A DNA stretch of 64,000 bases from positions 199 through 64,198 of the forward strand of contig JAFQBE010000003.1 of NCBI GenBank assembly GCA_017416765.1. The letters run 5' to 3'. The notes under the pieces are model-generated. The model was not told the origin of the DNA. It worked only from the letters and a program-made list of their open reading frames with translations, and did not search any database. Made by a program: the position numbers and the translations under genes. Positions 2,439 to 38,427 of the stretch are shown piece by piece (the first letter of the stretch is position 1; each line of letters begins with the position of its first letter). The DNA comes from Clostridia bacterium (GTDB taxonomy: Bacteria; Bacillota; Clostridia; Oscillospirales; Acutalibacteraceae).

Positions 2439-3023
2439 TCAGTTATCTAAAATTGTAAGTTCAACCGTGCATTTGTTTTCGCCGCAGTAAATACCATCTT
2501 CATTGTAGGCTTTTACAACGCAGATGCAGGTATAATGACCTTTTTTCAGGTTAATTCTGTTGGTCAGCTTATCGTTAAGCAAGCATTCACCCGGAGCTAA
2601 ACGCGGCGACTGATAAAACGGGTCTACCTGATTTTTCGGAAGGTAGAAAGAAAACTCAAGGTCATATTCGGAAACCTTAGGATTTTCAAGCATTATACTG
2701 CCACGGCAATACAGATTATCAAAAATAATATCGGTATTAAGTCGGTAGCGGATTTCACCTTCGGGGATTTCGGTAATCTGATGTTTTTCGTTAATAACAC
2801 CGTACTTAACCGCACCGCGCGGAATTGTAAAGCCGGCTATCATGTGGAAAAAGCCCAGTGCATTAAGTGCAAAAACCGCAATTGCAAGTACAACACAGCT
2901 GGCAAGCAGCATAATTGAAGCCTGCATAATTTTAGGATTATTTTTGGCATCGGCAAGAGTTATTTTTGCTTTTTTTTCTGTATTATCTTTCTTGTGTTTT
3001 TTCATCAGTTTCTTCCTCTTCAA
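2439..3023 (-). CDS. single-pass membrane protein, Lys-rich cytoplasmic N-terminus, extracellular beta-rich domain (paralog of 2983-3852)
   Basis: MKRKKLMKKHKKDNTEKK then TM IMLLASCVVLAIAVFALNALGFF; C-domain aligns by eye with the neighbouring gene (E-x-RY...T-x-I-x-F ... YQS-x-x-L-x-x-G ... AY); start overlaps the upstream stop. Confidence 0.6.
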   Translation of the reverse strand: MKRKKLMKKHKKDNTEKKAKITLADAKNNPKIMQASIMLLASCVVLAIAVFALNALGFFHMIAGFTIPRGAVKYGVINEKHQITEIPEGEIRYRLNTDIIFDNLYCRGSIMLENPKVSEYDLEFSFYLPKNQVDPFYQSPRLAPGECLLNDKLTNRINLKKGHYTCICVVKAYNEDGIYCGENKCTVELTILDN

Positions 3024-3852
3024 TTCCCACCTGAACGGTCAGGTCGGAATACTGAACTCCTATAAGCTTATAGCTTTCGGGATCATATGCCACAACGACA
3101 AGCTTTGTTTCGTGCGTACCGTAGGGCAATGAGTTAATTGTTATATCGGCAAGGCGCCTTCCTGCAGGCAGACCAAGCGACTGATAGACTACATTACCTG
3201 CTTCGTCAACAATTGAAGCGATAAGCACACATTCGTTATCAAAAACATTTACAAGGTTAAGCTTTGCCGGCAAATATTTTTCAACAAAGGTAATTTCAGT
3301 TTCTGCATAGTAACGGAATTCGTCCGTATCGCCTTTGCGCTTCATTCTGTCAGTAAATTCGTACTGCGTCGCCAGGTCATCCGTCACAACAAGGGCTTCG
3401 GAATCATCAACATTCACACCCATATACTTTACCTTTGCCTCACTCGGCACGGTAAAACGAAGCGACAGAATCAGCGCACCTACGCAGATTACAGCAATAA
3501 CTATACTGACTGCAAGTATTACAGCAGAACCTTTTTTAGGGTCAACAGAAGCAAACTTCTTTTTTATCTGAAACTTGATTTCTTTAAAGGTTTTCTGCTT
3601 TTTAACAGGCTTTTTCTTTTGCTGTTTTTTAGGCTTTGCGGTTTGCTGCTTTTCAACCTGCTGTTGTTTTACAGGCTGCGGTTTGGGTTGCGGTTTAGGT
3701 TCGGGCTTTTTTTCCGTAGCCTGAGCAGGTTTGGGCTGTTCCGGCTTTTTCACCGCAGCGGGCTTTGCAACAGCATTTTTACCCTTATATGCAGCGGCCG
3801 CCTGTTTTGCAGCCTGGCTGTTTTTTTTCTTCTTTTGTCTTTTATTTGCCAT
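2983..3852 (-). CDS. single-pass membrane protein with K/P/Q-rich cytoplasmic tail (paralog of 2439-3023)
   Basis: About 110 aa of low-complexity KKPEQPKPAQATEKKPEPKPQPKPQPVKQQQ, TM AVILAVSIVIAVICVGALILSL, then a ~150-aa extracellular domain; GGAG 9 nt upstream of the ATG. Confidence 0.65.
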   Translation of the reverse strand: MANKRQKKKKNSQAAKQAAAAYKGKNAVAKPAAVKKPEQPKPAQATEKKPEPKPQPKPQPVKQQQVEKQQTAKPKKQQKKKPVKKQKTFKEIKFQIKKKFASVDPKKGSAVILAVSIVIAVICVGALILSLRFTVPSEAKVKYMGVNVDDSEALVVTDDLATQYEFTDRMKRKGDTDEFRYYAETEITFVEKYLPAKLNLVNVFDNECVLIASIVDEAGNVVYQSLGLPAGRRLADITINSLPYGTHETKLVVVAYDPESYKLIGVQYSDLTVQVGIEEEETDEKTQER

Positions 3853-3879
3853 TGTAAATTACTCCGCAATTATTTTGGT

Positions 3880-4524
3880 TCAGCTTCTCCAAGGAAGAGT
3901 ATTCATACCCCACACCTGTCTGTAGCGGTTGAACTGAACCGCATCAACGGTAAAATCAATTTTAAGGGTTACGGATTGGTATGTTCCCGCATCAAGTGCG
4001 ACAGAAATAGCAGACATATCAAAGCTTGCTGTATCAAAGCCGCTGAACACTTCAACCTTTTCATCTTCACCCGTCGGGAAAGAGCCTGCATAATAGACAA
4101 AGCCGTCTGCTGATCTGTTATCGTAAAGTTTACCGTCTGTTCCAAGTTTGAACGGAAGGTTATATTCACCCTGCAAGCGTACTGTATCACCGTTCGCATC
4201 AACCGCAGTCCATTCGTGTGAAACGCGGAAGCGGACAAAGGGAACGCCGTTGCCGGTTTTTTCAACAGTAAAACTCAAACCTGAAAGCTGTGAAATATCA
4301 ACATTGTTTTTAGTAAAAGTATAGGTTAATACACCGTTACTGCTACTGGGAGTAACAGTAAAATGAAAATCGTCAAGCTGTGTAAGGTGCCAAGGATTAA
4401 TAGGTGCACCGCTTGTAATCCATGCGGTTGTGCCGCAATATACCGCAACCAAGGCGCAAAGCACCAACGCAACAATCGCCAACGGATTGAGCTTGAATTT
4501 TTTTGTAGTTTTAGTTTTGCTCAT
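3880..4524 (-). CDS. TasA-like protein with SipW-cognate-type signal peptide (minor subunit candidate)
   Basis: Signal MSKTKTTKKFKLNPLAIVALVLCALVAVYCGTTAWITSG; C-terminal TLKIDFTVDAVQFNRYRQVWG resembles the terminal strand plus A-x-Q motif of TasA/camelysin proteins. Confidence 0.6.
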   Translation of the reverse strand: MSKTKTTKKFKLNPLAIVALVLCALVAVYCGTTAWITSGAPINPWHLTQLDDFHFTVTPSSSNGVLTYTFTKNNVDISQLSGLSFTVEKTGNGVPFVRFRVSHEWTAVDANGDTVRLQGEYNLPFKLGTDGKLYDNRSADGFVYYAGSFPTGEDEKVEVFSGFDTASFDMSAISVALDAGTYQSVTLKIDFTVDAVQFNRYRQVWGMNTLPWRS

Positions 4525-4553
4525 TGTTTTATGCGCCCTTTCGGTAAAAATTA

Positions 4554-5366
4554 TTAAGCGTTAGCATCCAACTCACTGCCATCACACTGTTCGGCACTCA
4601 ATTTAACATCAACATTATAATTTACTGTACGGATATTATCATTATCAACATCATCAAGTTCAATAAACCTATCATACTCTACCCAGAAACAGATGCAATA
4701 GGTTTTAGAATTGCCTGGTTCAAGATGTTCAATCTGCTTGTTCGCTGTATTCAAAAATCTGAGCTCATCAAAGCTATTGTCAACGGTAACACCGACGAGC
4801 TTTTCACCAAGCTTTTCGCTGAGTTTTGAATCGAAATATTTACCTGCCGACTTAATAACACAGCTTTCATCCTGATTAACATAAACACCGTCAACAAGTT
4901 CGGTAACGCCTGTTGCGTCAGCAATTTCATCAGAATCGGACACTTCATAAATAAAATATCTCAAGCCCTTGTCAAACTCGGCTGATTCCTGAACATCACT
5001 GCCATTAACAGAATCGACAACTTCAATTCTAATCTGTGCGTTAAGTTCACTGTCACTCTGATTTTCAACTTCGAAAATATAATACTTTGCCGCATGCTCG
5101 AACATATTATTGCGTTCGTTTTCGTCAAGGAACTTGGTTGCGGCATCAAACTCCAAATCCAATGCTTTAATACTGCTGTCAATGGGATTACCTGCGGCAT
5201 CTTTAAAATTAACAAGGAGCTTTTTCATTGAGTAATCCTGCGACTTTTCATCCTTATCGGAAAAATACGAAGTTGTAGGCTCTGCCATTGTATAGAAGCC
5301 GACGCTGAAAACAAGCATAGCGCAAAGCACTACACTAAAAGCACTGCGGAAATTAAAATTTTTCAT
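4554..5366 (-). CDS. TasA/camelysin-like (Peptidase_M73-type) secreted protein with SipW-cognate signal
   Basis: Signal ending EPTTSYFSDKDEKS is very close to the camelysin/TasA GTFAYFSDKE box; ATG overlaps the stop of the upstream peptidase gene (ATGA at 5363-5366). Confidence 0.7.
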   Translation of the reverse strand: MKNFNFRSAFSVVLCAMLVFSVGFYTMAEPTTSYFSDKDEKSQDYSMKKLLVNFKDAAGNPIDSSIKALDLEFDAATKFLDENERNNMFEHAAKYYIFEVENQSDSELNAQIRIEVVDSVNGSDVQESAEFDKGLRYFIYEVSDSDEIADATGVTELVDGVYVNQDESCVIKSAGKYFDSKLSEKLGEKLVGVTVDNSFDELRFLNTANKQIEHLEPGNSKTYCICFWVEYDRFIELDDVDNDNIRTVNYNVDVKLSAEQCDGSELDANA

Positions 5367-5848
5367 ACAGCTTCAGCCTCCTTTTTATTTTTTAAACGAT
5401 AAACTATAAAACGTATTGCCATTAAAGCAACAAGAACAACCGCAAGCACAACCATAACTGAAACCGGCTCAAACTTCAAGGCTAAATTGCCAAGCATGGG
5501 TACACTGAACACCACTTTGCCAACGATATCATCAAAAGCTGTCGGCAGCGGGTCAGGCTGCGAATTATTATCGCCCATAGTATATACGAGTTTTTTTTCG
5601 TTATCTACCGAAACGATACGGTGAGTAAATGTGCCGCCCGAGGGTAGGTTCGCTGTAATTATATCGCCTTCAAGGTATTCCCCTGCTGCACGGACAAAAA
5701 CCATATCACCTTCAAAAAGCTCATCCTGCATACTGGGGGTTGCAACGGCATAAACCTTGGTATCTGTAATTTTCAGACCGAGGGTAAAAACAAACACCGC
5801 AACGATAACTATAGAAACAATATTGTAAATAATATTAAATATTCTCAT
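5363..5848 (-). CDS. signal peptidase I, archaeal/ER (SipW, S26B) type
   Basis: N-terminal TM, Ser box ATPSMQDELFEGDMVFV, His box FTHRIV, GDNNSQPDP box, C-terminal TM; start set at ATG 5848 (MRIFNII), 4 nt after the upstream stop; the track ORF extends to 5896. Confidence 0.8.
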   Translation of the reverse strand: MRIFNIIYNIVSIVIVAVFVFTLGLKITDTKVYAVATPSMQDELFEGDMVFVRAAGEYLEGDIITANLPSGGTFTHRIVSVDNEKKLVYTMGDNNSQPDPLPTAFDDIVGKVVFSVPMLGNLALKFEPVSVMVVLAVVLVALMAIRFIVYRLKNKKEAEAV

Positions 5849-5852
5849 AAAA

Positions 5853-6554
5853 TCAACTTGCCTGAACTGTAGTTGTCGGATCGGGAACCTGTTCAAAAGG
5901 ATGCTCAGCAGTACCCATTACTTCCCATTCAACATGCGCAGTCTGCTTGGCTTCAAAGGTTAATTTAACTGTAATAGTCTTACCTTCACCAAAACTGCCT
6001 GAAGGTAAAACAGAATTTTTGCCGCTGTAGTACATTGCGGAAAACAGCGGAATAATCTGCTGGGTTACATTTTCAGCAAGACCTTGTATTGTATCGTCTG
6101 TACCTTCGATAGCGGGGTCATCATAATAAAAATAACCGTCTGCATCGTTATATGACCAATAGGTTTTTGAATTACTGTCTGCTGCTGGTTCTGCAACAAA
6201 GGGTGCGCCTGTATCCGCTGCACTTACAAAAGAACTGAGTTCTTCAAGACGGTTTCCGGCAGCATCAAAATATGTATAAGAAACCTTAACTCTTACCTGA
6301 GTATCAATAGAAGAATTGTTGATAAGATAAAAACTTGCATCTTCTTTAATTAAGTTCTGCAAGGGTTCAATTGAAGCGGTATTATCTGCAAAATCGCCAA
6401 CCAGAGTATAACCCATATTACCTGATTGGAAATTGTGAAGCACGCCGCCTGCACCCTCGCCATAGCTGGGAAACCATGCATAAGTGCCGTTAACACCGAA
6501 CACACCCGCTATAAAAACAAGGGAAAGGACAAGACAGATTATTTTATTTTTCAT
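5853..6554 (-). CDS. TasA-like protein with SipW-cognate signal peptide
   Basis: MKNKIICLVLSLVFIAGVFGVNGTYAWF signal; INNSSIDTQVRVKV and KLTFEAKQ motifs as in the TasA/camelysin family; ATG overlaps the upstream stop (ATGA 6551-6554). Confidence 0.7.
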   Translation of the reverse strand: MKNKIICLVLSLVFIAGVFGVNGTYAWFPSYGEGAGGVLHNFQSGNMGYTLVGDFADNTASIEPLQNLIKEDASFYLINNSSIDTQVRVKVSYTYFDAAGNRLEELSSFVSAADTGAPFVAEPAADSNSKTYWSYNDADGYFYYDDPAIEGTDDTIQGLAENVTQQIIPLFSAMYYSGKNSVLPSGSFGEGKTITVKLTFEAKQTAHVEWEVMGTAEHPFEQVPDPTTTVQAS

Positions 6555-7069
6555 GCCTTCACCGCTTTCTTTTCAGATTTATATTTTTCGATTTCAACCG
6601 CAAGCCAGATTATATAAAACAAAGCTATTATAGCCTTACCCCACACGGTATTAAGAGCCTGAACTACATAGCCCCAATAAGGGAAGAAGAACAGCACCCT
6701 GCCCTTACAATTTGCAAAAGGGGTAGGCAGCGGGTCTGAAACCTTGCTTGCATCGCCCTTTGTAGCAACCGTTTCGTTTTCATAATCAACGCTCATAACG
6801 CGGTGGGTAAAGGATTTTGTTCCTGCCTCGTTTGAAAAAAGCAGAACATCTATACCCGGTTGAATATCGTTAATTTCAATTTTTTCAATATAGACCATGC
6901 TGCCCTTGGGTATATTGGGCTCCATACTGCCGGTTTTTACATAGTAGCTTTCCACACCTAAAAGTTTCGGAAACCACACGGCAACACATAGCAGGACCAG
7001 CACAGCCGAAAAAGCCGCAAAAAATTTATTGCTTTTTCTTTTTTTCTTCATCTTCATTGTTCTTTTCAT
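6551..7069 (-). CDS. signal peptidase I, SipW (S26B) type
   Basis: KTGSMEPNIPKGSMVYI, FTHRVMSV and KGDASKVSDPLP boxes, TM at both ends; exact start uncertain (three in-frame ATGs at 7069-7051, overlapping the upstream gene). Confidence 0.8.
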   Translation of the reverse strand: MKRTMKMKKKRKSNKFFAAFSAVLVLLCVAVWFPKLLGVESYYVKTGSMEPNIPKGSMVYIEKIEINDIQPGIDVLLFSNEAGTKSFTHRVMSVDYENETVATKGDASKVSDPLPTPFANCKGRVLFFFPYWGYVVQALNTVWGKAIIALFYIIWLAVEIEKYKSEKKAVKA

Positions 7070-7598
7070 TCATTTTTTTGCTGATATTAACCATTTCCAT
7101 AGTAATGATTATACACATGGGAAGCACAATCAGCACAAGGAAAAACGCAGGATTTTCGCGTATTTTCATCAGCTTTTGCATTAAATTACTTTTACCCACT
7201 ACCTTGCCGATAATTTTTTCACTTTCGGCAGAATATTCATCGGGGATTACATTTGCATCGCCCTGGGTAACAAAGCTGTAGGTTCCGTCACCGTCGTCGG
7301 TAACTTCCATAATTCTGTGGGTAACAATCATATTACCCAATGAGGGATTGCTCGAATAAAAGGTTATAACATCCTTTTCTTTAAGCTGAGAAGGGTCGGT
7401 TTCTTTAATAATAATAACCGTACCTATCGGATATTCGGGGGTCATACTGCCGGTTTGTACAGCCATAAAGCCGTAGCCGAAAACGGTAGTAGCCTCGCCC
7501 CTTTTGGCATTGTAGCCAACAAGAACAAGAACCGCTACAGCAAAAAGGATAAGCGCAACAAGAACAAAATTAATTATTTTACCTATAACTTTTTTCAT
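7026..7598 (-). CDS. signal peptidase I, SipW (S26B) type
   Basis: QTGSMTPEYPIGTVIII, VTHRIMEV and QGDANVIPDEY boxes, TM at both ends, short acidic/Lys tail; GGAAGGA upstream of the ATG. Confidence 0.8.
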   Translation of the reverse strand: MKKVIGKIINFVLVALILFAVAVLVLVGYNAKRGEATTVFGYGFMAVQTGSMTPEYPIGTVIIIKETDPSQLKEKDVITFYSSNPSLGNMIVTHRIMEVTDDGDGTYSFVTQGDANVIPDEYSAESEKIIGKVVGKSNLMQKLMKIRENPAFFLVLIVLPMCIIITMEMVNISKKMNEKNNEDEEKKKKQ

Positions 7599-7604
7599 TT
7601 TGCT

Positions 7605-8273
7605 TTATCCTTCCGCTTCTTCGCCGGATTCTTCTGTAATTAAGTCTGCTTCCAAAACAAAGGAAAGCACCTTATCCATATAAATATTTCTGGCTTTCTC
7701 GTCCATTTTTATTTCATATGTATATTCATATTGTGTAGCATTTTCAGGCTTTTCCCCTACAACACCATTGAAAATAAGAGCAGATGCACCGTCGCCGGCA
7801 AGTTCATCAATACTTTGAAATGCACCGCCGTTAACGCTTACAAGAAGTACCTTTGAAAGCATATTTTCCTCAACAACAGGGTTGTAAATATCAACAGGTG
7901 CAGCGGTTGTTTCTGTACCTTCTTGAACATCGCTTTCTGTTTGGGGTTCTCTGAGTTCAGCAGAAATCTGTGAAAGAGACATTTTCAAAGTGTCAGTTGG
8001 CTGCGCGGTAAAATACACTTTGAATCTCCATGTTTTACCGGGAACAAGCTCAAGATGCTGACCGTTATATGTAGACCAAAAATTAACGGACTGTTCGTAC
8101 TGAATTGAATTAAACTGTGAGGGGACTTTAGGGGAGCTGACAGACGCAAGAATCTGACCCACCGATGCGTGATTGCCGACTGCAAACCATGCAAAGGTAG
8201 CACAAACAAGCACAAGCACCAATACGCCGCCTGCGACTGCCAACTGAAAAGCATTTGTTTTCTGACTTTTCAT
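7605..8273 (-). CDS. secreted protein with SipW-cognate signal peptide (TasA-like minor subunit candidate)
   Basis: MKSQKTNAFQLAVAGGVLVLVLVCATFAWFAVGN signal; starts 31 nt downstream of the giant gene stop. Confidence 0.6.
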   Translation of the reverse strand: MKSQKTNAFQLAVAGGVLVLVLVCATFAWFAVGNHASVGQILASVSSPKVPSQFNSIQYEQSVNFWSTYNGQHLELVPGKTWRFKVYFTAQPTDTLKMSLSQISAELREPQTESDVQEGTETTAAPVDIYNPVVEENMLSKVLLVSVNGGAFQSIDELAGDGASALIFNGVVGEKPENATQYEYTYEIKMDEKARNIYMDKVLSFVLEADLITEESGEEAEG

Positions 8274-8304
8274 TCCTTAAAGTCCCCTTTTGATTTAATA
8301 AAAT

Positions 8305-11300
8305 TTAGAAAAAGCTTACAAGCTTGTGGACACCCCAAGCCTCTTCAACTGCGGTAATATCAATTGAAACCGTAGTGAAGTTTACAAGCTCTGTTGTTGC
8401 TTCTGAACCGATAACAACTGTAAATGAACCGTTCTGATTCTTGATGATGTCTGCTGATACATTTACATTATCAAACTTAACATCAATGTCCTCAGCTATC
8501 AGTTTTTCATCAAGCTGTGCCGTTACGGTGAAGGTATAAGCCTCAAGCTCTTCATCGTAAGCAAAAATCATGTTATTGCATATTGATTCGTAACTTTCGG
8601 CGTAGTTTGCAGTACTATCAAAGATTGTGGCTGCACTCTTACCTTCGCCCACACCGGTTACAACAGAAATAATTGCCTTTGATGAATCAGCAATTCCGCT
8701 ATCTTTCAGCTTATACTGTACAGCCTTAACGGTTTTACCGAGAGTGAAATCAATATATCTTACAAGGCTTGTATCTGCAAGAGTATAAGTGAATTCACCT
8801 TCTGCCGTTTCGCCCAGAGCAAGACTGCTTGTATCAGCTTTGAGGCTTGTGCCGGAAGTTGTTGCACCAAAGTATTTGACCGTATCACCTGAAACAGTCA
8901 TTATTGCGCCCCAATCATCAGCCGCAACACCGGTAAATACCTTTGAAGTACCTGCGCCCGTGCCGTTGACAAAGCTTATCTTTGCACTTGCAAGCTTAAC
9001 AGCATTCATGAAAGCATCGCCGTAATTTTCACCCGAGGCTATTGCAGCAGGTACGGGATAGCCGGAGAAGCTGTTTATTCTGCCCATTGTTGAAACAAAA
9101 TCTGAAACAAGAGCAGTAGTAAGGTAATGTGTAGAGGCTGCTGTTACTCCGTTTTCTTCTGCTGCTACCATTGAAAGCTGCTTATCGTAGTAGCTGTTTG
9201 TAACGGTAATATTTTTACCGTCACCTGCTATATTACCGACTGTTGCACCATTTACATTACCTGCAAATACTGTGTTTGAAACTGATACTGAATCTGTTGT
9301 ATTAGCAGGGCCGCTTCCGATAATACCGCCGACTGCGGAATTGCCGCCATCTACCAATACGGTTGAAAGGCTGTTTGTAACTGATACGCCGTTTTCAGCC
9401 TTACCGATTACACCGCCTGCACTGCCTTCGGAATTGACAACCTTACCGGAAACTACACAACCGTCTATAATTACAGGACCCTGTGCATCACCTATAAGAC
9501 CGCCGATATACTCGCTTGTTGCAGCTTTACCGTCAGGACCGGTAACTGTACCGACGACAACGCAGTTGGTAATTGTAGAGGTATTGTTCATGGCTTTTGC
9601 GGCAAGCATACCTGCCGCATCGGTATTACCTTCCGGAACGGTAATACTGATACCTGCTATACCGAGGTTGGAAATATTACCGCCATCAATTACACCGATA
9701 AGTGCGTTATCGCCTTCCGGCGGAATTGTTACATTGGAAAGTGTGTAACCTCTACCGTCGAGGTTTGCGCTGAACAAATCAATGTATGCGCCCCAATCGG
9801 TACCCGTCATATCAAGTGCGCCGTTTGTGATATCGTCAATATCGTTACCTTCGGCATCTGTGACTTCACCGATAATAAAGTAACTGTCGGGGTTTGAACC
9901 GTAGTAGGAAAGAGCAACAACCTGTTCCTTGGTAGCGATGATATACGGTGTTTCTTCTGTACCGTTACCGCCGCTGAAGTTCGGATTGGGATTGTTATTT
10001 ACCGTAATATGGAGATTGTAAGTATCATAAATCTTACTTTCTTCCTTAGTGTAGGAATGGTATTCTTCAATCTCAATACCCAAATCAGGCTTATTAGTAA
10101 TATCAGGATTTCGAACGCTGATAATTGTTGAGGCAGCTTTATTATTTGTTGTGAAATATTTGCCACCGCCTGCAAAGTCATCCATTTCAGCAACGGATTC
10201 ATCAGCCATTTTCCAGATAAATTTGCTGCTGATAACAGTATCGGTTCCGTAGGGCAGATAATCGATATAGTTATCGTTATTTACCATAGCACCTGCTGAA
10301 CTCAGATTAGAGTAGGAACGCAGAGTTCTGTACATAAGGCTCTGTTCTGTTTCTTCTTTAATCTTATTACCGTCTTTATCAGCTTCGCCGGTTTCCTCAA
10401 GCACTTTAGTATCAAGAATTGCTTTCAACTGCGGATATTCAATATCAACAACTGTTTCTACACCATCAATTACAGCAGTTTTACCTGCATTATCGGAAAC
10501 TACATAAGCACCCTTTACCATTATGTTCATATTGGAAAGAGTAGCTACTTCAAGCGTACGCTCTGCAAGATAGAAGTCATCGGCAAAGGATGAACCGCTC
10601 ATCTGCTTATCAAACATACTGTCATTAATCGAACCATCATTGTGGCCGACAAACACATGCGTTGTACCTGCATTATCAACGGTAAACAAACCTGCAGCAT
10701 AACAAGCGTTTATTGTGCCATTAGTTCCGTTGTTTGCAGCAAAGCTGCCTGCATTAAGTCCGGAATTTTCACCGCGCACAATAATATTGCAACGAGTATA
10801 GCAATTTGTGATTGCGCTGTTATTTGTGCCGACAAAGCCTGAAACAGAGCTTGTGGGAGAATCAAGAAGAATATCGCCCATTGTAAAGCAGGTTGAAATT
10901 GTGTTGTTGTTTTCGCCGACAAAGGCCGCTGCACTATTTGCTGAACCTGTTATATCGCCTACCGAAGCACTCATGGCAATTGTACCGTTATTGGTAAGAG
11001 CTATACCTGCAAATGAATCATTTGCTGTGCCTTCCCAATCAAGGTTGACAACGCAGCCTTCGATTATACCGTTTTTATTTACAGTCTGTGCAATACCTGC
11101 AACATTGTTGCCGCTGCTCTTGGTATGTGTATACTTCAAAGTGCCGTCGGTATTTTTCTCGTTGACGGGCATGCTGAATACATTTACGCCTCTGACAATA
11201 CCGTCAAGATTGCCTACAAGGCTTTCACCTTCGCTGAATACTGTATCCTTAAAGGTTACATTCGTGATAACAGAACTTTCGTTTACGGTATCTGCAAGAG

Positions 11301-25659: not shown

Positions 25660-25750
25660 TTTTAAGAACCTCCAAAATATCCGGTAAAGTGTTCAGCTTT
25701 CGGTGTCTTTCTGCCGTTACACCGCAAGGCTTAATTTAATATTGCCTTTA

Positions 25751-27883: not shown

Positions 27884-27928
27884 ATTCAATCGCTCCTTAA
27901 TTCAGACTTTTGCTTTTTTCACAAGCCT

Positions 27929-27950
27929 CCGTCCCGTAAAAACGGGACGG
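27929..27950 (-). other. GC-rich intercistronic hairpin between the McrB-like and McrC-like genes
   Basis: CCGTCCCGT-N4-ACGGGACGG, a 9-bp perfect stem; not followed by a U-tract on the minus strand. Confidence 0.5.
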
Positions 27951-27982
27951 AATAACTTGCAAGAAATTAATATAGTAATAAA

Positions 27983-29578: not shown

Positions 29579-29611
29579 TTTGTAGCCACCTTTGCTGTAT
29601 TTTTTGAAAAA

Positions 29612-30481
29612 TTATTTATTTTCGCTGTCGTTTATTTCGTTTTGCTCTGTCTGCTGCTCTTCTGCAGCCTTTTGCTGTGCAAGGAACTCCGCGATAATTG
29701 CTTTTATCTTTGCTTCCTCTGCTTTTTCTTTTTCAGCCTGTTCAAGTTCTTTCTGCTTGGCTAAATATTCTTCGATAATCATTTGTTTTCGTGCTTCTTC
29801 TTCCTGCTGTTTTCTCAGGTATTCCTGAATAATAGCGTCTTTTTCGCTTTGAGCCGCAGGAGGGTAATACTGCGGCGGTACATTGTATGCCACAGCAGGC
29901 TGCTGATTGCCCTTTTTATCGAGGGCCAGCGAACGAAGATAGCCGAAAAGCTGCCATATAACTATTAATGCAGCGGGCAACACAATAAGGAGCATAACAC
30001 CTTGTGATGTTGCGGCAAAATCAAAGAATGCGCCAAGCTTTTCAACTCGTTTGCCTTGATACTGACCAAGAATTTTAGAGGAGGTAACATGTTTTTTATC
30101 GGGCTGGTCTGCATTATCGCCTTTTGTAACGTAGCTGACCGAACCGTTGCTTTCGATTACATCGTAAACCCTGTGGGTATTGATATACATTGAACCCGTT
30201 TTATCGTAAGCGAGGAAAGAAATTATATCGCCCACTTCATACCGATGGGTTTTAGGGTAGCGCTTAATGATAATCAAATCGTCGGGAAAGAATTCGTCTT
30301 CCATCGAATCACTCTGAACGGAAAGGAACGAATATCCGCCGAGATTTGCAACACCGGTTGACGATTTAACCGAAATTATAACCACCGCACAAATTACGAT
30401 TGAAAAAACTAATATCACAGATGAAACCACATTCATCGCGATATGAAATATTCTGTTGTCCAAAATATTGGCTTTTTTCAT
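29612..30481 (-). CDS. SipW-type (S26B) signal peptidase I with a ~105-aa charged C-terminal cytoplasmic tail
   Basis: VQSDSMEDEFFPDDLIIIK, NTHRVYDV and KGDNADQPD boxes; second TM GVMLLIVLPAALIVIWQLFGYL; tail carries three (A/M)II-x-E(Y/F)L-x-(K/Q)Q motifs. Confidence 0.8.
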   Translation of the reverse strand: MKKANILDNRIFHIAMNVVSSVILVFSIVICAVVIISVKSSTGVANLGGYSFLSVQSDSMEDEFFPDDLIIIKRYPKTHRYEVGDIISFLAYDKTGSMYINTHRVYDVIESNGSVSYVTKGDNADQPDKKHVTSSKILGQYQGKRVEKLGAFFDFAATSQGVMLLIVLPAALIVIWQLFGYLRSLALDKKGNQQPAVAYNVPPQYYPPAAQSEKDAIIQEYLRKQQEEEARKQMIIEEYLAKQKELEQAEKEKAEEAKIKAIIAEFLAQQKAAEEQQTEQNEINDSENK

Positions 30482-30527
30482 ATGCGTTTCCTTTGCGGGG
30501 TTAATATGTATTCAAGCGGCTTATAAA

Positions 30528-31400
30528 TTAAGCTGCGGGTTCTTCTTCACTTGATGAACCGAAGGAGATTTTAGCTGAAAGGTGCTTTGCGGAAAGCTTT
30601 TCACCTGTACAGTCAGCATCGTTACCTTCAATCCAGATGCGTACTATGATTTCATCAGAACCGGTATTACCGGAAATCTGCGGAAGCTCAAAAGTAGCTT
30701 CGTACTTGTTGATTTCTGCTTCGCTCGCTGTAAGCTGACCAACAATATTCTGAGTTGAAACATAAGAACCATTGAAGTTAGCATCTTCAGAATCAAGAAT
30801 GCTGTTGTTGTTTGAATCCTTAACAGTTGCAGCAGGAAGTTCGTTTGTAACAACTGCCTGTGCGCTGTCGCCTTCCATGGCGAATACTGTTGTCTGACCT
30901 TTATATGTAACTGAAACACGGGCTGCTTCAACAGCTGCGTTATCGCCATCGCGACCTGTAAGGGCGATGTTCATTCTGCCGTCAACAGTTTCTGTTGTTG
31001 TGGAACGGATTTTGATTGTAAGTTCGTTATAATCGCTGCCCTTTTCGGGTGTAAGGGAAGCGAAGTAGCCGCCTTCAAGACCGACCTTTGTGAAAGCTGC
31101 ACCGTCAGCGCTTGAAACAGGAGAATAGCTGCCGTCTTCTGCTATAAGCTCACCTTCTGCGAAACAGTCTCTCTGGAGATATGCGCCCCATTCAACTGTC
31201 TCTGTTTCTTCTGCGCCCATGTGAGCATGACCAGCGGAACCCTGAATTTCAATACCACCGCCGGCTTCAATAACATCGAAGCCCAGGTCGAACAGCTCTG
31301 CGAAGCCACCGACAAGGAACCAGGCGTATGTACCGGATACCATTGTTGTTGCGGCAACGATAAGAACGATGATAGACATTCCTAATTTGCGTTTTGCCAT
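30528..31400 (-). CDS. TasA-like fibre subunit candidate with SipW-cognate signal
   Basis: MAKRKLGMSIIVLIVAATTMVSGTYAWF signal; C-terminal VRIWIEGNDADC motif shared with 32909-33712 and 33845-34717. Confidence 0.7.
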   Translation of the reverse strand: MAKRKLGMSIIVLIVAATTMVSGTYAWFLVGGFAELFDLGFDVIEAGGGIEIQGSAGHAHMGAEETETVEWGAYLQRDCFAEGELIAEDGSYSPVSSADGAAFTKVGLEGGYFASLTPEKGSDYNELTIKIRSTTTETVDGRMNIALTGRDGDNAAVEAARVSVTYKGQTTVFAMEGDSAQAVVTNELPAATVKDSNNNSILDSEDANFNGSYVSTQNIVGQLTASEAEINKYEATFELPQISGNTGSDEIIVRIWIEGNDADCTGEKLSAKHLSAKISFGSSSEEEPAA

Positions 31401-31461
31401 TTTGTTTACCCTCTTTACTGAAATTTTTATTTAAGAGCAATGCGCTCTTGAATACTCTTTT

Positions 31462-31646
31462 GCGGACGGCCGATGGCCGCCCCTACGGTTTGGTTTGTTT
31501 CGGACAACCATAGGTCGCCCATAAGGTTTTGTTTTGCGGGCGATTCGTAAATCGCCCCTATGGTTTAATATTGTTATTAATATTATAAATATTTAGTTAA
31601 TACTATTCGGGATTTTTTCGCGGACGACCGAAGGCCGCCCCTACGA
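31462..31646 (-). repeat. four copies of a ~27-nt GC-rich hairpin repeat (consensus TTTGCGGACG-stem-loop-stem-CGCCCCTACGGTTT)
   Basis: Copies at 31462-31488, 31500-31527, 31536-31563 (about 37-nt spacing) and 31619-31646; 7-8 bp stems with 3-6 nt loops. Confidence 0.8.
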
Positions 31647-31648
31647 TT

Positions 31649-32617
31649 TTATTTATCAGATTCTTCGGCGGCTTTTTCGGCTTCCTGCTGTGCGAGGTAT
31701 TCAGCGATAGCCTGTTTTTTGAGTTCTTCCTCTTTAGCGGCCTTCTCAGCGGCAGCCTTTTCAGCCTCCTGCTGTTTGATATATTCTTCAACAGCCTTTT
31801 TCTTTATTTTCTCTTCTTCGGCTGCTTTTGCGGCGGCAGCTTTTTCAGCCTCCTGCTGCTTGATATATTCTTCAACAGCTTTTTTCTTTATTTCGTCTTC
31901 TGTTTCTTCCTTCTTTTCGGGTTCAGCCGGAGCCTGTGGCTTTTCTTCCGGCGCTTTTGCGGGAGCGGAATTGCTTTCAGCCTGATGTGCCTGAATTTCA
32001 GCCATCAAGCGCTGCTTGATTTCTTCTTCCGCATCCTTAACAGCAGCAACAGCTTTTTCTTTCTTTGCGTCCATAAGAGTTGAAATAAACTTGAACAGTT
32101 CAAAGAAGAAGAATATAGCGGTCGGAATAACTACGCAAAGCATGAAACCGAGCTGTGACTGGAGAAAATCCATTATTGTACCGAGTTTCGGAATTGCTAT
32201 ACCAGTCCAAACACCTATGATACTTTCACAGTTGATCGGGAACTCATCATGAGTAACGGTATTATCACCTTTAGTGGTATAATAGTTGTATGAACCATGC
32301 CATTCTTTTTCAATAATTCTATGGGTATCATAGTACATCTGCTGTTCATAATATGCAGTATATGTTACTACATCACCTACATTCAAATCATTAGCTTGGT
32401 CTCTATCCAATAATTCAATTACAATCAAAGAACCAACTGGAAAGCCTTCCGGTCCTTCCATTGAATCCGTTTGAACAGACATTATTGCCTTACCGAACAA
32501 ATTAGGAAGTTTTGCATCTCCTACCGTTGATGAAATAACTAATACAGTCATAACTATTGAAAATATTAAAATAATGGTTACAAAAACATTTCCAACAATT
32601 TTTCCTACTTTTTTCAC
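31649..32617 (-). CDS. SipW-type (S26B) signal peptidase I with a ~140-aa charged C-terminal cytoplasmic tail
   Basis: VQTDSMEGPEGFPVGSLIVI, DTHRIIEK and KGDNTVTHDEF boxes; second TM LGFMLCVVIPTAIFFFFELF; start set at GTG 32617 (GGAGG 9 nt upstream); the track ORF starts at a TTG at 32680. Confidence 0.8.
   Translation of the reverse strand: MKKVGKIVGNVFVTIILIFSIVMTVLVISSTVGDAKLPNLFGKAIMSVQTDSMEGPEGFPVGSLIVIELLDRDQANDLNVGDVVTYTAYYEQQMYYDTHRIIEKEWHGSYNYYTTKGDNTVTHDEFPINCESIIGVWTGIAIPKLGTIMDFLQSQLGFMLCVVIPTAIFFFFELFKFISTLMDAKKEKAVAAVKDAEEEIKQRLMAEIQAHQAESNSAPAKAPEEKPQAPAEPEKKEETEDEIKKKAVEEYIKQQEAEKAAAAKAAEEEKIKKKAVEEYIKQQEAEKAAAEKAAKEEELKKQAIAEYLAQQEAEKAAEESDK
31753..31894 (-). repeat. 84-nt tandem duplication within the peptidase tail coding region
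   Basis: 31753-31810 and 31837-31894 are near-identical (about 3 mismatches in 58 nt); they encode KKKAVEEYIKQQEAEKAAA twice. Confidence 0.8.
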
Positions 32618-32711
32618 TAAATTATTCCTCCGGATATTTAAAATTTGGGAGCAACTGTCATTTCGATTTTGATTATTCAATCAATATCCAAATCGCACCT
32701 GCTCAATCGGA

Positions 32712-32868
32712 GTCCGGTCGAATCGCGAAAACGACCGGACACCGTTTGTAGGGACTGCTAATCAGCAGCCAAAAGTACCTTTGTTAGCTAACAACTTAAT
32801 TTCGGGCGGTTCATTAGCCGCCCCTACGGGGGAGATATCGCATAGGGGTGAGTTGCCCACCCCTATGC
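32712..32868 (-). repeat. cluster of four hairpins in the spacer after the major subunit gene
   Basis: GTCCGGTCG-N11-CGACCGGAC (32712-32740); an inverted degenerate copy of the repeat family (32741-32775); a direct copy CGGGCGGTTCATTAGCCGCCCCTACGG (32803-32829); a perfect 11-bp palindrome GCATAGGGGTG-N7-CACCCCTATGC (32840-32868). Confidence 0.75.
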
Positions 32869-32908
32869 AAAAAGTAAACCTTTTAATTAAGAATAACTAA
32901 GTTATTGC

Positions 32909-33712
32909 TTATTTTGCAAGGTTAAGGCTAAGAGTGATGTTATCTGTATTTACAAGACCGAAACAGTCAGCATCCTGACCTTCTGCCCATACAAATACAT
33001 CGAAGGAAACCTTATTTGTTTCGCCTGTTGCACCTTCAGCAAATGTGTAGCTGATTGTCTGAGTAGCAGCTTCGCCAACTGTTACAGCTGTGCCAAGTGC
33101 AAGACCGTCGGTAGAAGCAGCAGCTTCTGATGCATCGATAATACCATTAGCGGGAATAGCGGAGTCAGCAGCTGTACCTGCAGCACCGATGGGTGTGTAG
33201 GTGTTGTCCTTAGCACCGAACAGTGTGTATGCACCGTTGTTAAGCATTGCACCGTAAACATAACCACTTGCAGATGTGAGAGTGGGAGTTACTGTAACTG
33301 TACAAGGAACTTCAGCATAAAGATAAACTGTGAACTTAATGTACTTGCCGTTAAGCTGGTCAGCAGATGCTTCAGAAGCATTGAGAACAGAGATTGCTGA
33401 ACCCTCAGCCTGAGCAAGGTTAGCGTTGAACCACTTCTTAGCAGTTACATCAAAAGAAACAGGAGTAAGGGCAGCGGGGAAGCTGTTGCCTGTAACAGCA
33501 CTGAGTGAAGTCTGTTCAAGGCTTGTGCCCCATGTGCCTGTTGCGCCTGTTGCTGAGATGTAGATAGAACCTGCATCGTTAGCTGTTGTTGCGGAAATGC
33601 CTGTAACAGAAGCTGTGTTAGCTGCTGCGAACCAAGCGTAGGTTGATGATGTGAGAACTATTGCAGATACCATGAGCATCGCAAGAGCTGCCACGAGTGA
33701 ACGTTTTTTCAT
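32909..33712 (-). CDS. TasA-like fibre subunit, candidate major subunit (SipW-cognate signal)
   Basis: MKKRSLVAALAMLMVSAIVLTSSTYAWF signal; mature part is very rich in A/T/S/G and poor in charge; C-terminal VFVWAEGQDADC motif; start set at ATG 33712 (GGAGG 8 nt upstream); structured spacers on both sides. Confidence 0.75.
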   Translation of the reverse strand: MKKRSLVAALAMLMVSAIVLTSSTYAWFAAANTASVTGISATTANDAGSIYISATGATGTWGTSLEQTSLSAVTGNSFPAALTPVSFDVTAKKWFNANLAQAEGSAISVLNASEASADQLNGKYIKFTVYLYAEVPCTVTVTPTLTSASGYVYGAMLNNGAYTLFGAKDNTYTPIGAAGTAADSAIPANGIIDASEAAASTDGLALGTAVTVGEAATQTISYTFAEGATGETNKVSFDVFVWAEGQDADCFGLVNTDNITLSLNLAK

Positions 33713-33844
33713 AGTTTTTTCCTCCATTTAAGAGTTAGTGTTTTTTTAGGGATTAGAAACACATTTTATCCAAAGTGTTTCGGACTTTATGCGGGGTTAA
33801 TCAAACGCTGTGACAAGGAAAAGCTTTATTAAGTCTCCCCCAAC

Positions 33845-34717
33845 TTATTGGGCTTCTTTGTCGAGAACCTCAAGGTTCATCTTGAGTTTGACTTCACCTC
33901 CCATAATGTCGTTAACACATTCAGGATCTTCGCCTTCCAGCCAGACGACGACAGTATATCTGTCACTTTCGTCTACCTTGAAGTTTCGGCGGATATGTTC
34001 CATGACTACCGTATCGGAGACAAAGTTTTTATCCGCTTCGAATGTTTCCTTTTTGTTTTCGGTACCTACCTGCGGTTTTGCGTAAACCGTAGGCTTACCG
34101 TTTATGAAAACCATGACGCGTATTGCTTCGTCAGCACCCTTGTAGGCTGTGACTACTTCAAGACTTGCCAGGTAATCAACCGTTGCATCCTCTCCGCCCG
34201 GAATTTCTTCGCCGGCGTTACGCACCGCAAAGGTATAGGCGAGGTAGTTGGTGCCGTTATGGTCACCGTAGACTTTATCAATTGCTTCGTAGCTTTCGTA
34301 AACCGGGTCATCACCAAGCTCACCGTTCTGGTTGAGTAGCCAATGCTTTGTTATGTTATCCATGTTTTCGATTGCCGAGCCGTAAAGCTGAAGCGTGGGA
34401 TTTTCAAACTTTTCGTTATCTGCAAGCTGGATACCGTAGAGGTTGCCCGCCATGCTGACCGTAAAACGGCCTGCGCTGTTGATAACCGAGGTACAGGCAT
34501 AGCCTATAGCAAGCAGTATCAACAAAATGCCGACGATAATAGCAAGAATACGGATTAACCAATTGCGCTTATAAACTTTTTCGGCAGAGGTATTAACATC
34601 GTACTTATCCATGCCGTCCGGACTGAGTGCCGGTATGTAAGGACCGCTGGCGCCGGGAACGAAGCCGTTGTTTACGGGCTGCTCGGCTGCGGCGGTTTCT
34701 TTTTTCTTTTTAGCCAT
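33845..34717 (-). CDS. membrane-anchored protein with a TasA-like extracellular domain (anchor/nucleator candidate)
   Basis: Cytoplasmic N-terminus MAKKKKETAAAEQPVNNGFVPGASGPYIP, TM WLIRILAIIVGILLILLAIGYA, C-terminal VVVWLEGEDPEC motif; start set at ATG 34717 (GGAG upstream); the longer track ORF reads into a hairpin repeat. Confidence 0.65.
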   Translation of the reverse strand: MAKKKKETAAAEQPVNNGFVPGASGPYIPALSPDGMDKYDVNTSAEKVYKRNWLIRILAIIVGILLILLAIGYACTSVINSAGRFTVSMAGNLYGIQLADNEKFENPTLQLYGSAIENMDNITKHWLLNQNGELGDDPVYESYEAIDKVYGDHNGTNYLAYTFAVRNAGEEIPGGEDATVDYLASLEVVTAYKGADEAIRVMVFINGKPTVYAKPQVGTENKKETFEADKNFVSDTVVMEHIRRNFKVDESDRYTVVVWLEGEDPECVNDIMGGEVKLKMNLEVLDKEAQ

Positions 34718-34750
34718 ATTTATCAACTCCGATGAATTAATTCGGGTTAT

Positions 34751-34777
34751 GCGGACGGCCATTGACCGCCCCTACGA
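34751..34777 (-). repeat. single copy of the GC-rich hairpin repeat
   Basis: GCGGACGGCCATTGACCGCCCCTACGA, between the EAL gene stop and the next start. Confidence 0.75.
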
Positions 34778-34785
34778 AAGGTAGA

Positions 34786-35583
34786 TTATTTGATTTTCTT
34801 TTCGTCCCAAAGCTCTTTGCAGTACTGTTTACCGCGAAGCCTGTCTGCACCCATTTTTGTAAGTAACGCTGCAAGCTCGGGAGTATCCACACCGCTTACC
34901 ATTGTTTTAACGCCGAGTTTTTTTGCAAAATCCATAACACCCTGAACGATTATTCTCGGTCTGTCCTCATCCTCGTAAAGCTCGGGGTTAATGGGTTCTA
35001 CCAGCTTGCTGTTGATGCCTATGTAATCAACCTCATACTGGGAAAGGTTTGACATTGAGGTATATTCAACGCCGACATCGTCAATTGAGAAGTAGCAGCC
35101 CTCTTCACGCAGAGCAACTATATTCTTTCTGACCTGCTCGCTGTCGCTTGCGTAGATGCTTTCGGAAATGTTGAAGCAGAACTTGTCAAACTCAACGCCC
35201 TTCTTTTCGAGAATCTTTTTAACCTGCGATACAAAGTAGGGCTTTGCAAGGTACTTGACAGAGATATCAAGAATAAAGCTGTTGATGCTTGCCTCTCTTG
35301 CTTCTGCACGGTTGAGCACATCGCAGCATTCTTCGATTGCCCAACGGTTAATTTCGCAGATGCGGTTGCTTTTTTCTGCAACGGGGATGTAGTATTCGGG
35401 AAGCATGACACCCATTTTTAAATCGTTTATGCGAACGCTTGTTGCATAGTCGAGAGCCATGTTGAGGTGATTGTCGAAAACGGGTTCAAACATGAGAACC
35501 ATCGGACGGTTGCGTCTGCCGCCGGTGTTTTTCTTTTGCTGAACCTCATTTTGTTCAGCGGAAAGATTTTTGTTTTCTGCCAT
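34786..35583 (-). CDS. stand-alone degenerate EAL-domain protein (likely inactive phosphodiesterase, possible c-di-GMP receptor)
   Basis: EAL-fold landmarks in the canonical order: FEPVFD, YIPVAEKSNRI, SIDDVGVEYTSMSNL, MVSGVDTPE. Catalytic positions are changed: EAL to TSV, N to D (LDIS), ExTE to NISE, KxD to GIN, EGVE to SGVD, QG to RG. Start set at ATG 35583; the track ORF begins at a TTG. Confidence 0.7.
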   Translation of the reverse strand: MAENKNLSAEQNEVQQKKNTGGRRNRPMVLMFEPVFDNHLNMALDYATSVRINDLKMGVMLPEYYIPVAEKSNRICEINRWAIEECCDVLNRAEAREASINSFILDISVKYLAKPYFVSQVKKILEKKGVEFDKFCFNISESIYASDSEQVRKNIVALREEGCYFSIDDVGVEYTSMSNLSQYEVDYIGINSKLVEPINPELYEDEDRPRIIVQGVMDFAKKLGVKTMVSGVDTPELAALLTKMGADRLRGKQYCKELWDEKKIK

Positions 35584-35656
35584 TGATGCCTGACCCCTTT
35601 GCAAATTAATTATTTATATATAATTATTATATATGAAGATAAAAATACACAGTAGA

Positions 35657-35685
35657 ATTGTAACACCGTAAAACTGATTTGTCAA
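35657..35685 (-). promoter_or_regulatory. sigma-A-type promoter of the fibre locus
   Basis: Minus strand TTGACA (35685-35680), 17 nt, TACAAT (35662-35657); sits ~70 nt upstream of the EAL start and just downstream of the neighbouring operon's terminator. Confidence 0.65.
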
Positions 35686-36668: not shown

Positions 36669-36676
36669 CCCCGTAA

Positions 36677-38424: not shown

Positions 38425-38427
38425 AGC

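Follow-up and report, generated by a model that had tools for sequence, protein, structure and literature searches.

A 33-kb CoCoPALM locus of an Acutalibacteraceae bacterium groups SipW-type signal peptidases and an McrBC-derived GTPase pair with a family of secreted beta-sandwich proteins

The closest described relatives of the locus analyzed here are the CoCoPALM systems, which were named in one paragraph by Bell et al., with their analysis deferred (eLife 2024, PMC11090510). In that account, an McrB GTPase of the NxD type is fused to an FtsB-like transmembrane (TM) and coiled-coil segment and is accompanied by a coiled-coil McrC homolog and proteins of the signal peptidase family; Bell et al. 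also arrived, independently of the present work, at a "pilus assembly" reading of CoCoPALM (PMC11090510). The supplements of that paper contain no CoCoPALM text, and no follow-up was found in the literature. Here, we describe a 33-kb locus in a 64,000-nucleotide stretch of DNA from a Clostridia bacterium of the Acutalibacteraceae (contig JAFQBE010000003.1, positions 199 to 64,198; this whole stretch is called the window). Judged from its sequence, the locus is a CoCoPALM system because all four defining features are present: an McrB-like GTPase of the NxD clade, the fusion of this GTPase to an FtsB-like TM and coiled-coil segment, a DUF2357 McrC homolog with a predicted coiled-coil extension, and the association with signal-peptidase-family proteins. 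An earlier note on this DNA knew of no described system with such a composition; its core had already been named by Bell et al. (PMC11090510).

The locus is an unusually large version of CoCoPALM, with five peptidases and a 5,784-amino-acid protein within 33 kb. New here relative to the description by Bell et al. are a subunit family with a T-[YF]-A-W-F signal motif, an anchored paralog of these subunits that lacks the presumed donor strand, an EAL gene predicted to be catalytically dead, an AIEEYLA tail motif on the GTPase-adjacent peptidase, a giant protein as the proposed cargo, and a structured RNA after the major-subunit gene. The genes of the conserved half of the locus and the remaining peptidase genes are listed below in the order of transcription (a slash marks the predicted cleavage site).

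34786..35604, minus strand: degenerate EAL-domain protein, first gene of the operon (PF00563, 1.9e-38)
33845..34762, minus strand: TM305, type II membrane-anchored beta-sandwich protein, a T272 paralog without the T[YF]AWF segment
32909..33727, minus strand: T272, secreted beta-sandwich protein, proposed major subunit (signal ...LTSSTYA/WF)
31649..32680, minus strand: SipW-1, SipW/archaeal-type signal peptidase (TIGR02228, 69.6 bits)
30528..31400, minus strand: T290, second secreted member of the T272 family (signal ...VSGTYA/WF; C-terminal WIEGNDADC; aligned within the family)
29612..30481, minus strand: SipW-2, signal peptidase encoded directly before the GTPase gene (TIGR02228, 81.3 bits)
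27983..29578, minus strand: McrB-like NTPase (NF008457 McrB, 2.8e-7; profile against McrB structures, 3e-7)
25751..27889, minus strand: McrC-like protein with a DUF2357 N-domain, 712 amino acids (PF09823, 5.9e-12)
7026..7598, minus strand: SipW-3 (TIGR02228, 87.4 bits)
6551..7069, minus strand: SipW-4 (TIGR02228, 76.1 bits)
5363..5896, minus strand: SipW-5 (TIGR02228, 73.0 bits)

The profile of the McrB-like protein matched the Escherichia coli McrB structures 6hz4, 6ut6, and 7vsr, and the Walker A (GISGTGKT), Walker B (ILDE), and signature (NNDD) motifs are intact. The signature reads I-N-N-D-D, an NxD followed by D as Bell et al. described; the ungapped HMMER alignment to MNTAD permits an NxxD reading too, and the call of the NxD sub-clade is not airtight. 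From the N terminus, the protein consists of 45 conserved residues, a TM segment (approximately residues 51–81), an FtsB/FtsL-like coiled coil (approximately 88–125), an acidic linker, and the AAA+ domain (approximately 200–531). The TM segment is followed by KKYIRFRK and a heptad-like stretch; here the FtsL_Actino model matched at 0.009 and FtsL_2 or FtsL matched weakly in 13 of 20 homologs, all below the cut-offs, and AAA_5 matched weakly in all 20. No DNA- or RNA-binding domain was found on this protein, whose N terminus is the membrane and coiled-coil segment. The McrC-like protein scored 45.8 bits against PF09823 (cut-off 23.3). Its predicted coiled-coil extension is a repetitive 382-residue tail (K 27%, A 22%, E 20%, no Pro, with repeats of 24/48 residues), which is encoded by 72/144-nucleotide tandem repeats at 25790-26387, and no nuclease or other effector domain was found in the 712 residues by searches of Pfam, NCBIfam, and the PDB. 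The length of McrC-like proteins varies from ~370 to ~1270 amino acids among species, indicating that the tail length is evolutionarily plastic. The two genes are adjacent, and the McrBC-derived GTPase pair of the earlier note holds.

All five peptidases exceed the TIGR02228 cut-off of 51.85 bits and keep the invariant SM, THR, and GD..D motifs that supply the Ser, His, and Asp residues, so the number and type of peptidases first noted in this DNA hold. Against the Bacillus SipW equivalog NF046067, they reached at most 121 bits, below its cut-off of 190. SipW-1 carries a 148-residue cytoplasmic tail (encoded at 31652-32095) with three copies of A(V/I)(E/A)EY(I/L)xxQ, and the SipW-2 tail has three copies of II(Q/E/A)E(Y/F)L (29615-29896). 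In Acutalibacteraceae and Ruminococcus, a motif of this kind, K(R/K)xA(I/V)EEYLAxQ, is conserved after the second TM helix of the McrB-adjacent SipW, and a variant is present on the corresponding peptidase of Christensenellaceae. Within related loci the AIEEYLA motif was found only on the McrB-adjacent peptidase; the short-tailed peptidases downstream, SipW-3, SipW-4, and SipW-5 in the window, are without it. Short-tailed SipW genes also lie downstream of DUF2357 in many related loci. In BLAST clustering the SipW and DUF2357 families are merged through their charged tails. The conserved tail motif together with these shared charged tails is the strongest hint that the peptidase and the GTPase may be physically coupled.

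Database relatives of the McrB-like protein number more than 8000, and identity is 69% or higher in the top 120 clusters. Among 1.84 billion representatives, 759 proteins scored 1e-30 or better, most of them sharing the GTPase domain only. With one genome scanned per GTDB species, 589 of the first 600 pattern matches were verified as relatives, so that relatives occur in at least 589 species. Linkage was analyzed in 80 of the loci from these species with 10-kb flanks, using phmmer with the window proteins and all-against-all clustering; the denominators below are the loci with enough flanking sequence.

DUF2357 gene downstream of the GTPase gene: 69 of 69 loci
SipW gene adjacent to the GTPase gene: 74 of 76 loci
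TM305 near the GTPase gene: 41 of 42 loci with full flanks
T272 family near the GTPase gene: 35 of 42 loci
dead EAL gene near the GTPase gene: 29 of 53 loci with enough upstream sequence
at least two SipW genes per locus: 26 of 42 loci
protein of at least 1000 amino acids downstream of the GTPase gene: 28 of 42 loci, many with a [ST][YF][AS]W signal

The GTPase pair, SipW, TM305, T272, dead EAL, and a large protein are therefore linked in dozens of species, as one conserved system rather than by chance juxtaposition. The earlier note had set a gene-neighborhood comparison beforehand, with absence of conserved linkage as the outcome against it; the counts show the opposite. It had also described the GTPase module as recruited to the locus. 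On the contrary, no part of the system is better conserved than the GTPase pair, which forms its invariant core; what varies is the extra peptidases and the giant protein. The system is carried by Acutalibacteraceae, by Ruminococcus, with R. flavefaciens MC2020 as an isolate, by Christensenellaceae, by one Lachnospiraceae metagenome-assembled genome (MAG), and by several Bacilli MAGs. The conserved core order is [dead EAL]-TM305-T272-SipW-McrB-McrC, and the minimal locus, that of R. flavefaciens MC2020, reads EAL-TM305-SipW-McrB-McrC. In Christensenellaceae (sampled loci L042, L049, and L055) the order is TM305-McrB-SipW-DUF2357; with SipW standing between the McrB and McrC genes, the linkage thus survives rearrangement. 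The GTPase is 54–95% identical across families and orders with synteny kept. The second half of the locus, from the giant gene to T214, recurs only in part of the Acutalibacteraceae, as in L019, where a giant-family protein, a T222-like protein, SipW3, T233, SipW5, T270, and T214 are found. Two contigs that carry the system (L016 and L046) were deposited as Bacteroidales/Bacteroidaceae MAGs; their genes are 58–70% identical to the Clostridia versions, and the contigs are probably mis-binned.

The comparison with E. coli McrBC and CoCoNuT shows what is shared and what has been replaced. McrB and the McrB-like protein have in common the AAA+ GTPase fold, the Walker A and B motifs, the Asn/Asp signature, and a DUF2357 partner; in McrBC, this domain is inserted into the ring, where it stimulates the hydrolysis of GTP. 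Unlike McrBC and CoCoNuT, the locus encodes a TM segment and a coiled coil in place of the DNA-binding N-domain. It has neither a nuclease of the PD-(D/E)xK or HEPN type nor partners that bind RNA or are methyltransferases, and it shows high conservation and synteny with envelope proteins. Because nuclease and DNA-binding domain are both missing, a type IV restriction system of the McrBC kind was ruled out.

The exported proteins of the locus share a distinctive signal, a hydrophobic helix ending in T-[YF]-A-W-F. Besides T272 and T290, the following products of the second half are concerned, and the two last ORFs close the array.

8305..25659, minus strand: giant secreted protein, 5,784 amino acids, proposed displayed cargo or adhesin (signal ...LLSSTGAYNLLVYA)
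7605..8273, minus strand: T222, small exported protein (signal ...VCATFA/WF)
5853..6554, minus strand: T233, small exported protein (signal ...VNGTYA/WF)
4554..5366, minus strand: T270, exported protein with the variant signal ...AEPTTSYFSD
3880..4524, minus strand: T214, exported protein with the variant signal ...YCGTTAWITS
2439..3852, minus strand: last two ORFs, 289 and 194 amino acids, with a Lys/Pro/Gln-rich N terminus, one TM segment, and a small ectodomain

The exact T[YF]AWF motif is found in four window proteins (T272, T290, T222, and T233) and variants in T270, T214, and the giant protein. In related loci, 120 of the 673 ORFs within operon spans have it, versus 9 of 330 outside, and A31, W32, and F33 are invariant across 29 T272 homologs. 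The mature N terminus of TasA follows GGGTWA, according to a TasA sequence verified against 8AUR. The signals of the locus parallel the TasA site GGGTWA/AF, with small residues at -3/-1 and aromatics at -2/+2, and from this mirrored context we infer cleavage after the Ala.

TM305 and the T272 family are homologous (hhalign probability 88%, E = 3e-6 over 215 columns), and a W-x-EG-x-D-x-x-C motif is common to TM305, T272, and T290, lying at the C terminus in the latter two. The AlphaFold2 (AF2) model of T272 is a confident beta sandwich with a pLDDT score (predicted local distance difference test) of 88.6, in which the sole low-confidence segment (pLDDT below 50) is residues 29–42, directly past the predicted cleavage site. 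In the TM305 model (pLDDT 84.7), a helix at residues 60–96 follows a cytoplasmic N-terminal tail and precedes the beta sandwich. In the hhalign alignment, TM305 lacks exactly the stretch from the helix to the first strand, and this same stretch is the low-pLDDT segment of T272. These models are suggestive, not proof, of a free N-terminal donor strand in T272 that the anchored base TM305 would not have. T272 diverges fast, with identity falling to 44–48% among the closest relatives, versus ~90% for the McrB-like protein and 80–86% for TM305 in close relatives; this contrast in rate is as expected for a machine and what may be its exposed product. Of the smaller exported proteins, T222 belongs to an orthologous cluster (c8) found after the giant gene in eight loci. 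T233 matched TIGR04090 (BsaA family) weakly, at E = 0.018 and below the cut-off, and T270 had no match in Pfam, NCBIfam, or single-sequence PDB searches.

AbpA, cannulae, and chaperone-usher subunits polymerize by donating an N-terminal strand. The locus subunits bear a weak, nonsignificant resemblance to these beta-sandwich proteins (TM-score at most 0.39): the Foldseek matches were mostly donor-strand pilins, namely the archaeal bundling pilin AbpA (7ueg, probability 0.94), FimA, PapA, the pilin domain of PapG, FimG, and cannulae, and those of TM305 were AbpA (7ueg), FimA, and PapA. The mature N terminus of T272 is disordered in the model of the monomer, and T272 may polymerize in a comparable way.

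The small SipW operons, B. subtilis tapA-sipW-tasA, B. cereus sipW-tasA-calY, and C. perfringens sipW-bsaABC, resemble the locus in having a SipW/archaeal-type peptidase beside its substrates and, for the TasA operons, in the cleavage context T-[WYF]-A/x-F. The proposed logic is also alike, a secreted beta-sandwich subunit with an anchoring or nucleating partner. Unlike the subunits of the TasA/camelysin operons, those of the locus are not Peptidase_M73/TasA proteins by hidden Markov model (HMM), profile, or Foldseek. CoCoPALM loci differ further in having 2–5 peptidases each, some with long cytoplasmic tails, and in the NTPase pair, dead EAL, and giant cargo. Because the test of the subunit family failed, the locus is not a TasA operon, and the view that it is an expanded tapA-sipW-tasA operon was abandoned, as the subunits were not of the TasA family by any test run.

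TasA-family identity of the small exported proteins was likewise rejected on HMM, profile, and hhalign evidence, and Foldseek gave no clear fold match. PF12389 matched 2 of 29 T272-family members weakly (E = 0.024). The profile of 29 T272 homologs did not find TasA among the PDB sequences and returned spurious antibody matches only, and T233 and T270, each used as a single query, matched nothing in the PDB. An NCBIfam scan of seven N termini at E values up to 10 gave no match to TIGR04088, a model that is possibly not in the library or filtered. The earlier note had counted seven TasA-like proteins. Their TasA family membership falls, with no match to Peptidase_M73 and no TasA found in the PDB by sequence or profile. 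Of the proteins concerned, four have the exact T[YF]AWF motif and three have variants; the one at 33845-34762 is the anchored paralog without it.

The EAL protein aligned to TBD1265 (2r6o) with the EAL motif changed to ATS and with the replacements N to D, E to N, K to G, E to S, and Q to R; of the catalytic and metal-binding residues of an active phosphodiesterase for cyclic di-GMP (c-di-GMP), namely the E of EAL, N, E, DD, K, E, and Q, the DD only is kept. The domain is degenerate in all 36 orthologs from other loci as well. On these substitutions the protein is catalytically dead, and the reading of the gene as a degenerate EAL protein, made when the DNA was first inspected, is upheld. The degenerate EAL receptors LapD and FimX are alike in that catalytic residues have been lost from the EAL fold and a surface-adhesin or pilus machinery is co-encoded. 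Unlike LapD and FimX, the EAL protein of the locus is a stand-alone domain of ~250–270 amino acids without GGDEF, HAMP, or PilZ partners, and most of its ligand and metal contacts are replaced too.

The ORF for the 5,784-residue protein is real. Its product has a conserved N-terminal LLSSTG in the giant family, no wall-sorting signal, and no C-terminal TM segment or anchor. It had been labeled a GLUG protein; both PF07581 matches (20.0 and 17.6 bits) lie below the Pfam gathering cut-off of 20.5, and we do not keep the label. The sequence contains 33 loose G[GA]hhG motifs. No PDB homolog was found with either half of the protein, and self-BLAST revealed no internal repeats. A C-terminal pilin domain was considered and dropped because hhalign of the N- and C-terminal 300–600 residues against the subunit profiles matched the signal region only. 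In other clades, proteins of 700–1550 amino acids downstream of the GTPase pair carry a [ST][YF][AS]W signal after a TM helix (L031, L034, L037, L041, L051, L064, L065, L073, and L078), and these are unrelated to the giant protein of the window.

Two intergenic regions of the first half are structured.

32681..32908, minus strand: highly structured intergenic RNA with GC-rich hairpins, 3' of the T272 gene (minimum free energy -90.2 kcal/mol, z = -6.7)
31401..31648, minus strand: second structured intergenic region with four TAGGGGCG-type hairpins (minimum free energy -73.6 kcal/mol, z = -4.6)

The gaps after T272-family genes are long and structured across species (median z = -5.9 for 47 gaps, 81% of them below -2; z-scores computed with mononucleotide shuffles). 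Such structure fits attenuation or 3' stabilization that would raise expression of the major subunit. No known RNA family was found in the window with Rfam, which excludes a c-di-GMP riboswitch in the leader at the gathering threshold.

Here, we propose a mechanism for the locus, as a machine for surface fiber or adhesin assembly coupled to a GTPase, a reading that we favor with moderate confidence. The dedicated T-[YF]-A-W-F proteins would be exported via Sec, and the SipW peptidases would cleave the subunits after the Ala, at TYA/WF. The disordered N-terminal segment of T272 freed in this way may act as the donor strand, so that T272 would polymerize on anchored TM305, the fiber base or nucleator, as TasA does on TapA or in the manner of AbpA and chaperone-usher pilins. 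The giant protein and the minor T-proteins, which have related signals, would be processed by the short-tailed SipW3-5 and incorporated or displayed. On the cytoplasmic side, the McrB-like ring would be held at the membrane by its FtsB-like TM segment and coiled coil, activated by the McrC-like protein, and docked to the peptidase tails, and GTP hydrolysis would gate or power processing and assembly from this side. The dead EAL protein may serve as an adaptor, possibly as a c-di-GMP sensor. On this proposal, CoCoPALM would be a conserved chromosomal machine of the envelope, present in gut Clostridia and in some Bacilli MAGs, by which surface proteins of a dedicated class are exported, processed, and probably polymerized. 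A SipW-dependent surface polymer carrying the giant protein and controlled from the cytoplasmic side had been the model of the earlier note; it is still the most economical one, in which we infer both the formation of a fiber and the energetics of the GTPase. More tentatively, the restriction-derived hexameric GTPase may be mechanically coupled to the signal peptidase through the AIEEYLA tail and the charged helix of the McrC-like protein, such that GTP hydrolysis would drive or license the cleavage, release, and ordered polymerization of T-[YF]-A-W-F proteins, including adhesins of several thousand residues, on the anchored base.

Several results weigh against this assembly mechanism. Pfam and NCBIfam scans of all 18 proteins gave no significant match to Peptidase_M73 (PF12389), TIGR04088-90, or TapA, and when the verified TasA sequence was compared by hhalign with three family profiles and with nine proteins of the window, the probability stayed below 8%, with the nonsignificant local alignments falling on the signal and the C-terminal strand. 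Foldseek searches of the PDB with the T272 and TM305 models returned neither 5of1 nor 8aur, and no solved pilin was a significant match, the best having E ~1e-2 to 6e-4 and TM-scores of at most 0.39. No recognizable pilin-like domain was found in the giant protein by hhalign of its terminal 300–600 residues. Binding of c-di-GMP by the EAL protein, which has lost most of its ligand and metal residues, is doubtful. For the last two ORFs, there was no homolog in any of the 80 related loci and no family match in Pfam or NCBIfam; they may be lineage-specific additions or lie outside the system. To our knowledge, moreover, donor-strand fibers of monoderm bacteria and archaea need no NTPase, and the role given to the GTPase has no precedent.

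The lack of a significant fold match to TasA or pilins would suit a sorting or secretion system for very large surface proteins without any fiber, in which signal and SipW act as an exosortase-like pair, T272 and TM305 form a non-polymeric coat or docking site, and the GTPase extracts or translocates the giant cargo. Proteins of at least 1000 amino acids downstream in 28 of 42 loci, the many large proteins bearing the same signal, and the location of several peptidase paralogs next to different cargo genes all point in that direction. However, no gene for a large cargo lies near the minimal R. flavefaciens locus, signal peptidases work on substrates that Sec has already translocated and are not known to require an NTPase, and both the disordered T272 N terminus missing in TM305 and the RNA structure behind the gene fit a polymerizing major subunit; we consider this alternative possible, if unlikely. 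The weak FtsL, FtsL_2, and FtsL_Actino matches in the TM–coiled-coil segment, called FtsB-homologous by Bell et al., would be explained if the segment targets the GTPase to the divisome as part of a septum-associated envelope complex, for example, for cell chains, cell–cell links, or spore appendages. These matches are, however, far below the cut-offs and may mirror generic TM and coiled-coil composition, and there are no divisome genes in the neighborhood, which leaves such a complex with little probability in our estimate.

The ancestry of the GTPase pair raises another question, that is, whether the locus is a membrane-associated anti-phage or conflict system derived from McrBC, similar to CoCoNuT, with the surface proteins as sensors or decoys and the GTPase pair as the effector switch. 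McrB and McrC descend from within the NxD, CoCoNuT-related clade, and PADLOC matched the McrB-like GTPase to the candidate family PDC-M26A at 1.3e-39. This match covers the AAA+ core only and reflects common GTPase ancestry, and automated defense finders may therefore mis-annotate CoCoPALM loci; no other component of the locus was matched by PADLOC. Since only the GTPase was matched, and to a candidate family, defense is kept as a minor, improbable rival. Against it also stand the McrC homolog without a detected nuclease or effector domain, the McrB-like protein without a DNA- or RNA-binding domain, a GTPase identity and synteny across families and orders that are unlike the fast turnover of defense islands, and housekeeping flanks without a mobile-element domain in the ten flanking proteins scanned. 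It is also conceivable that the units are unrelated neighbors, with an orphaned remnant of McrBC between a SipW/matrix-protein operon and the gene of a giant adhesin, because the two gaps of ~230–250 nucleotides with strong hairpins could separate transcripts and the half from the giant gene to T214 is confined to part of the Acutalibacteraceae. The adjacency of SipW (74/76) and TM305 (41/42), however, is kept across families even under rearranged gene order, and among the peptidases only the McrB-adjacent one has the tail motif. The linkage counts largely refute this very improbable account.

If the GTPase does drive assembly as we propose, the locus would be the first donor-strand fiber powered by a nucleoside triphosphate, the first type I signal peptidase coupled to an NTPase, and a clear case of a defense-type NTPase turned to assembly of the cell envelope. 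Among Firmicutes of gut and rumen, at least 589 genomes at the species level encode relatives of this strongly conserved GTPase, and the literature on the system is one paragraph in an McrBC census. Should these loci build surface fibers or display giant adhesins, they would be a major factor in the attachment of Ruminococcus, Acutalibacteraceae, and Christensenellaceae to fiber, mucus, or one another. The predicted cleavage site, the anchored paralog, the peptidase tail motif, and the dead EAL protein offer experimental handles in cultured carriers such as R. flavefaciens.

The gene layout was reproduced as first reported, with 18 successive minus-strand ORFs from 35604 to 2439, short gaps, and overlaps of neighboring ORFs, several of them at stop and start codons (6551-6554, 5363-5366, 7026-7069, and 2983-3023). 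The array is bounded by the following elements.

35657..35685, minus strand: sigma-70-type promoter TTGACA-17-TACAAT with an extended -10 TG (11 of 12 positions match), ~50 nucleotides upstream of the EAL start
~2406-2434, no strand assigned: bidirectional terminator hairpin AAGAGCCATCC/GGATGGCTCTT, an 11-base-pair GC-rich stem separating the last ORF from the convergent rubrerythrin gene

The promoter is the best promoter-like site in an 11-kb scan, and the hairpin and T-run of the upstream gene sit just 5' of it (35685-35657), so that the promoter placed immediately after the terminator of the neighboring operon was recovered with both elements. The closing hairpin claimed to be shared with a rubrerythrin gene was also read, and the rubrerythrin was confirmed. 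Six copies of the TAGGGGCG(G/A)(C/T) hairpin unit lie in intergenic gaps on the operon strand, and none of them has a U-run after it. One TAGGGGCG-type copy, at 34765-34774, is 3–12 nucleotides upstream of the start codon of TM305 (34760-34762) and could be no more than the ribosome-binding site of this gene.

The flanking genes are ordinary chromosomal ones (ThuA, BSP, CBM9, APH, deacetylase, GH3, Lon, and S51 peptidase), no integrase or other mobile-element domain was found among the ten flanking proteins scanned, and the G+C content of the locus equals that of its surroundings. Upstream, a co-directional operon at 35838-39986 encodes an unknown 276-residue protein, an APH-like kinase, a CBM9 protein, a BSP-like peptidase, and ThuA. 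The same operon precedes the locus in two sequence-identical contigs with enough upstream sequence (L001 and L002), and it is set apart from the locus by the terminator and the promoter.

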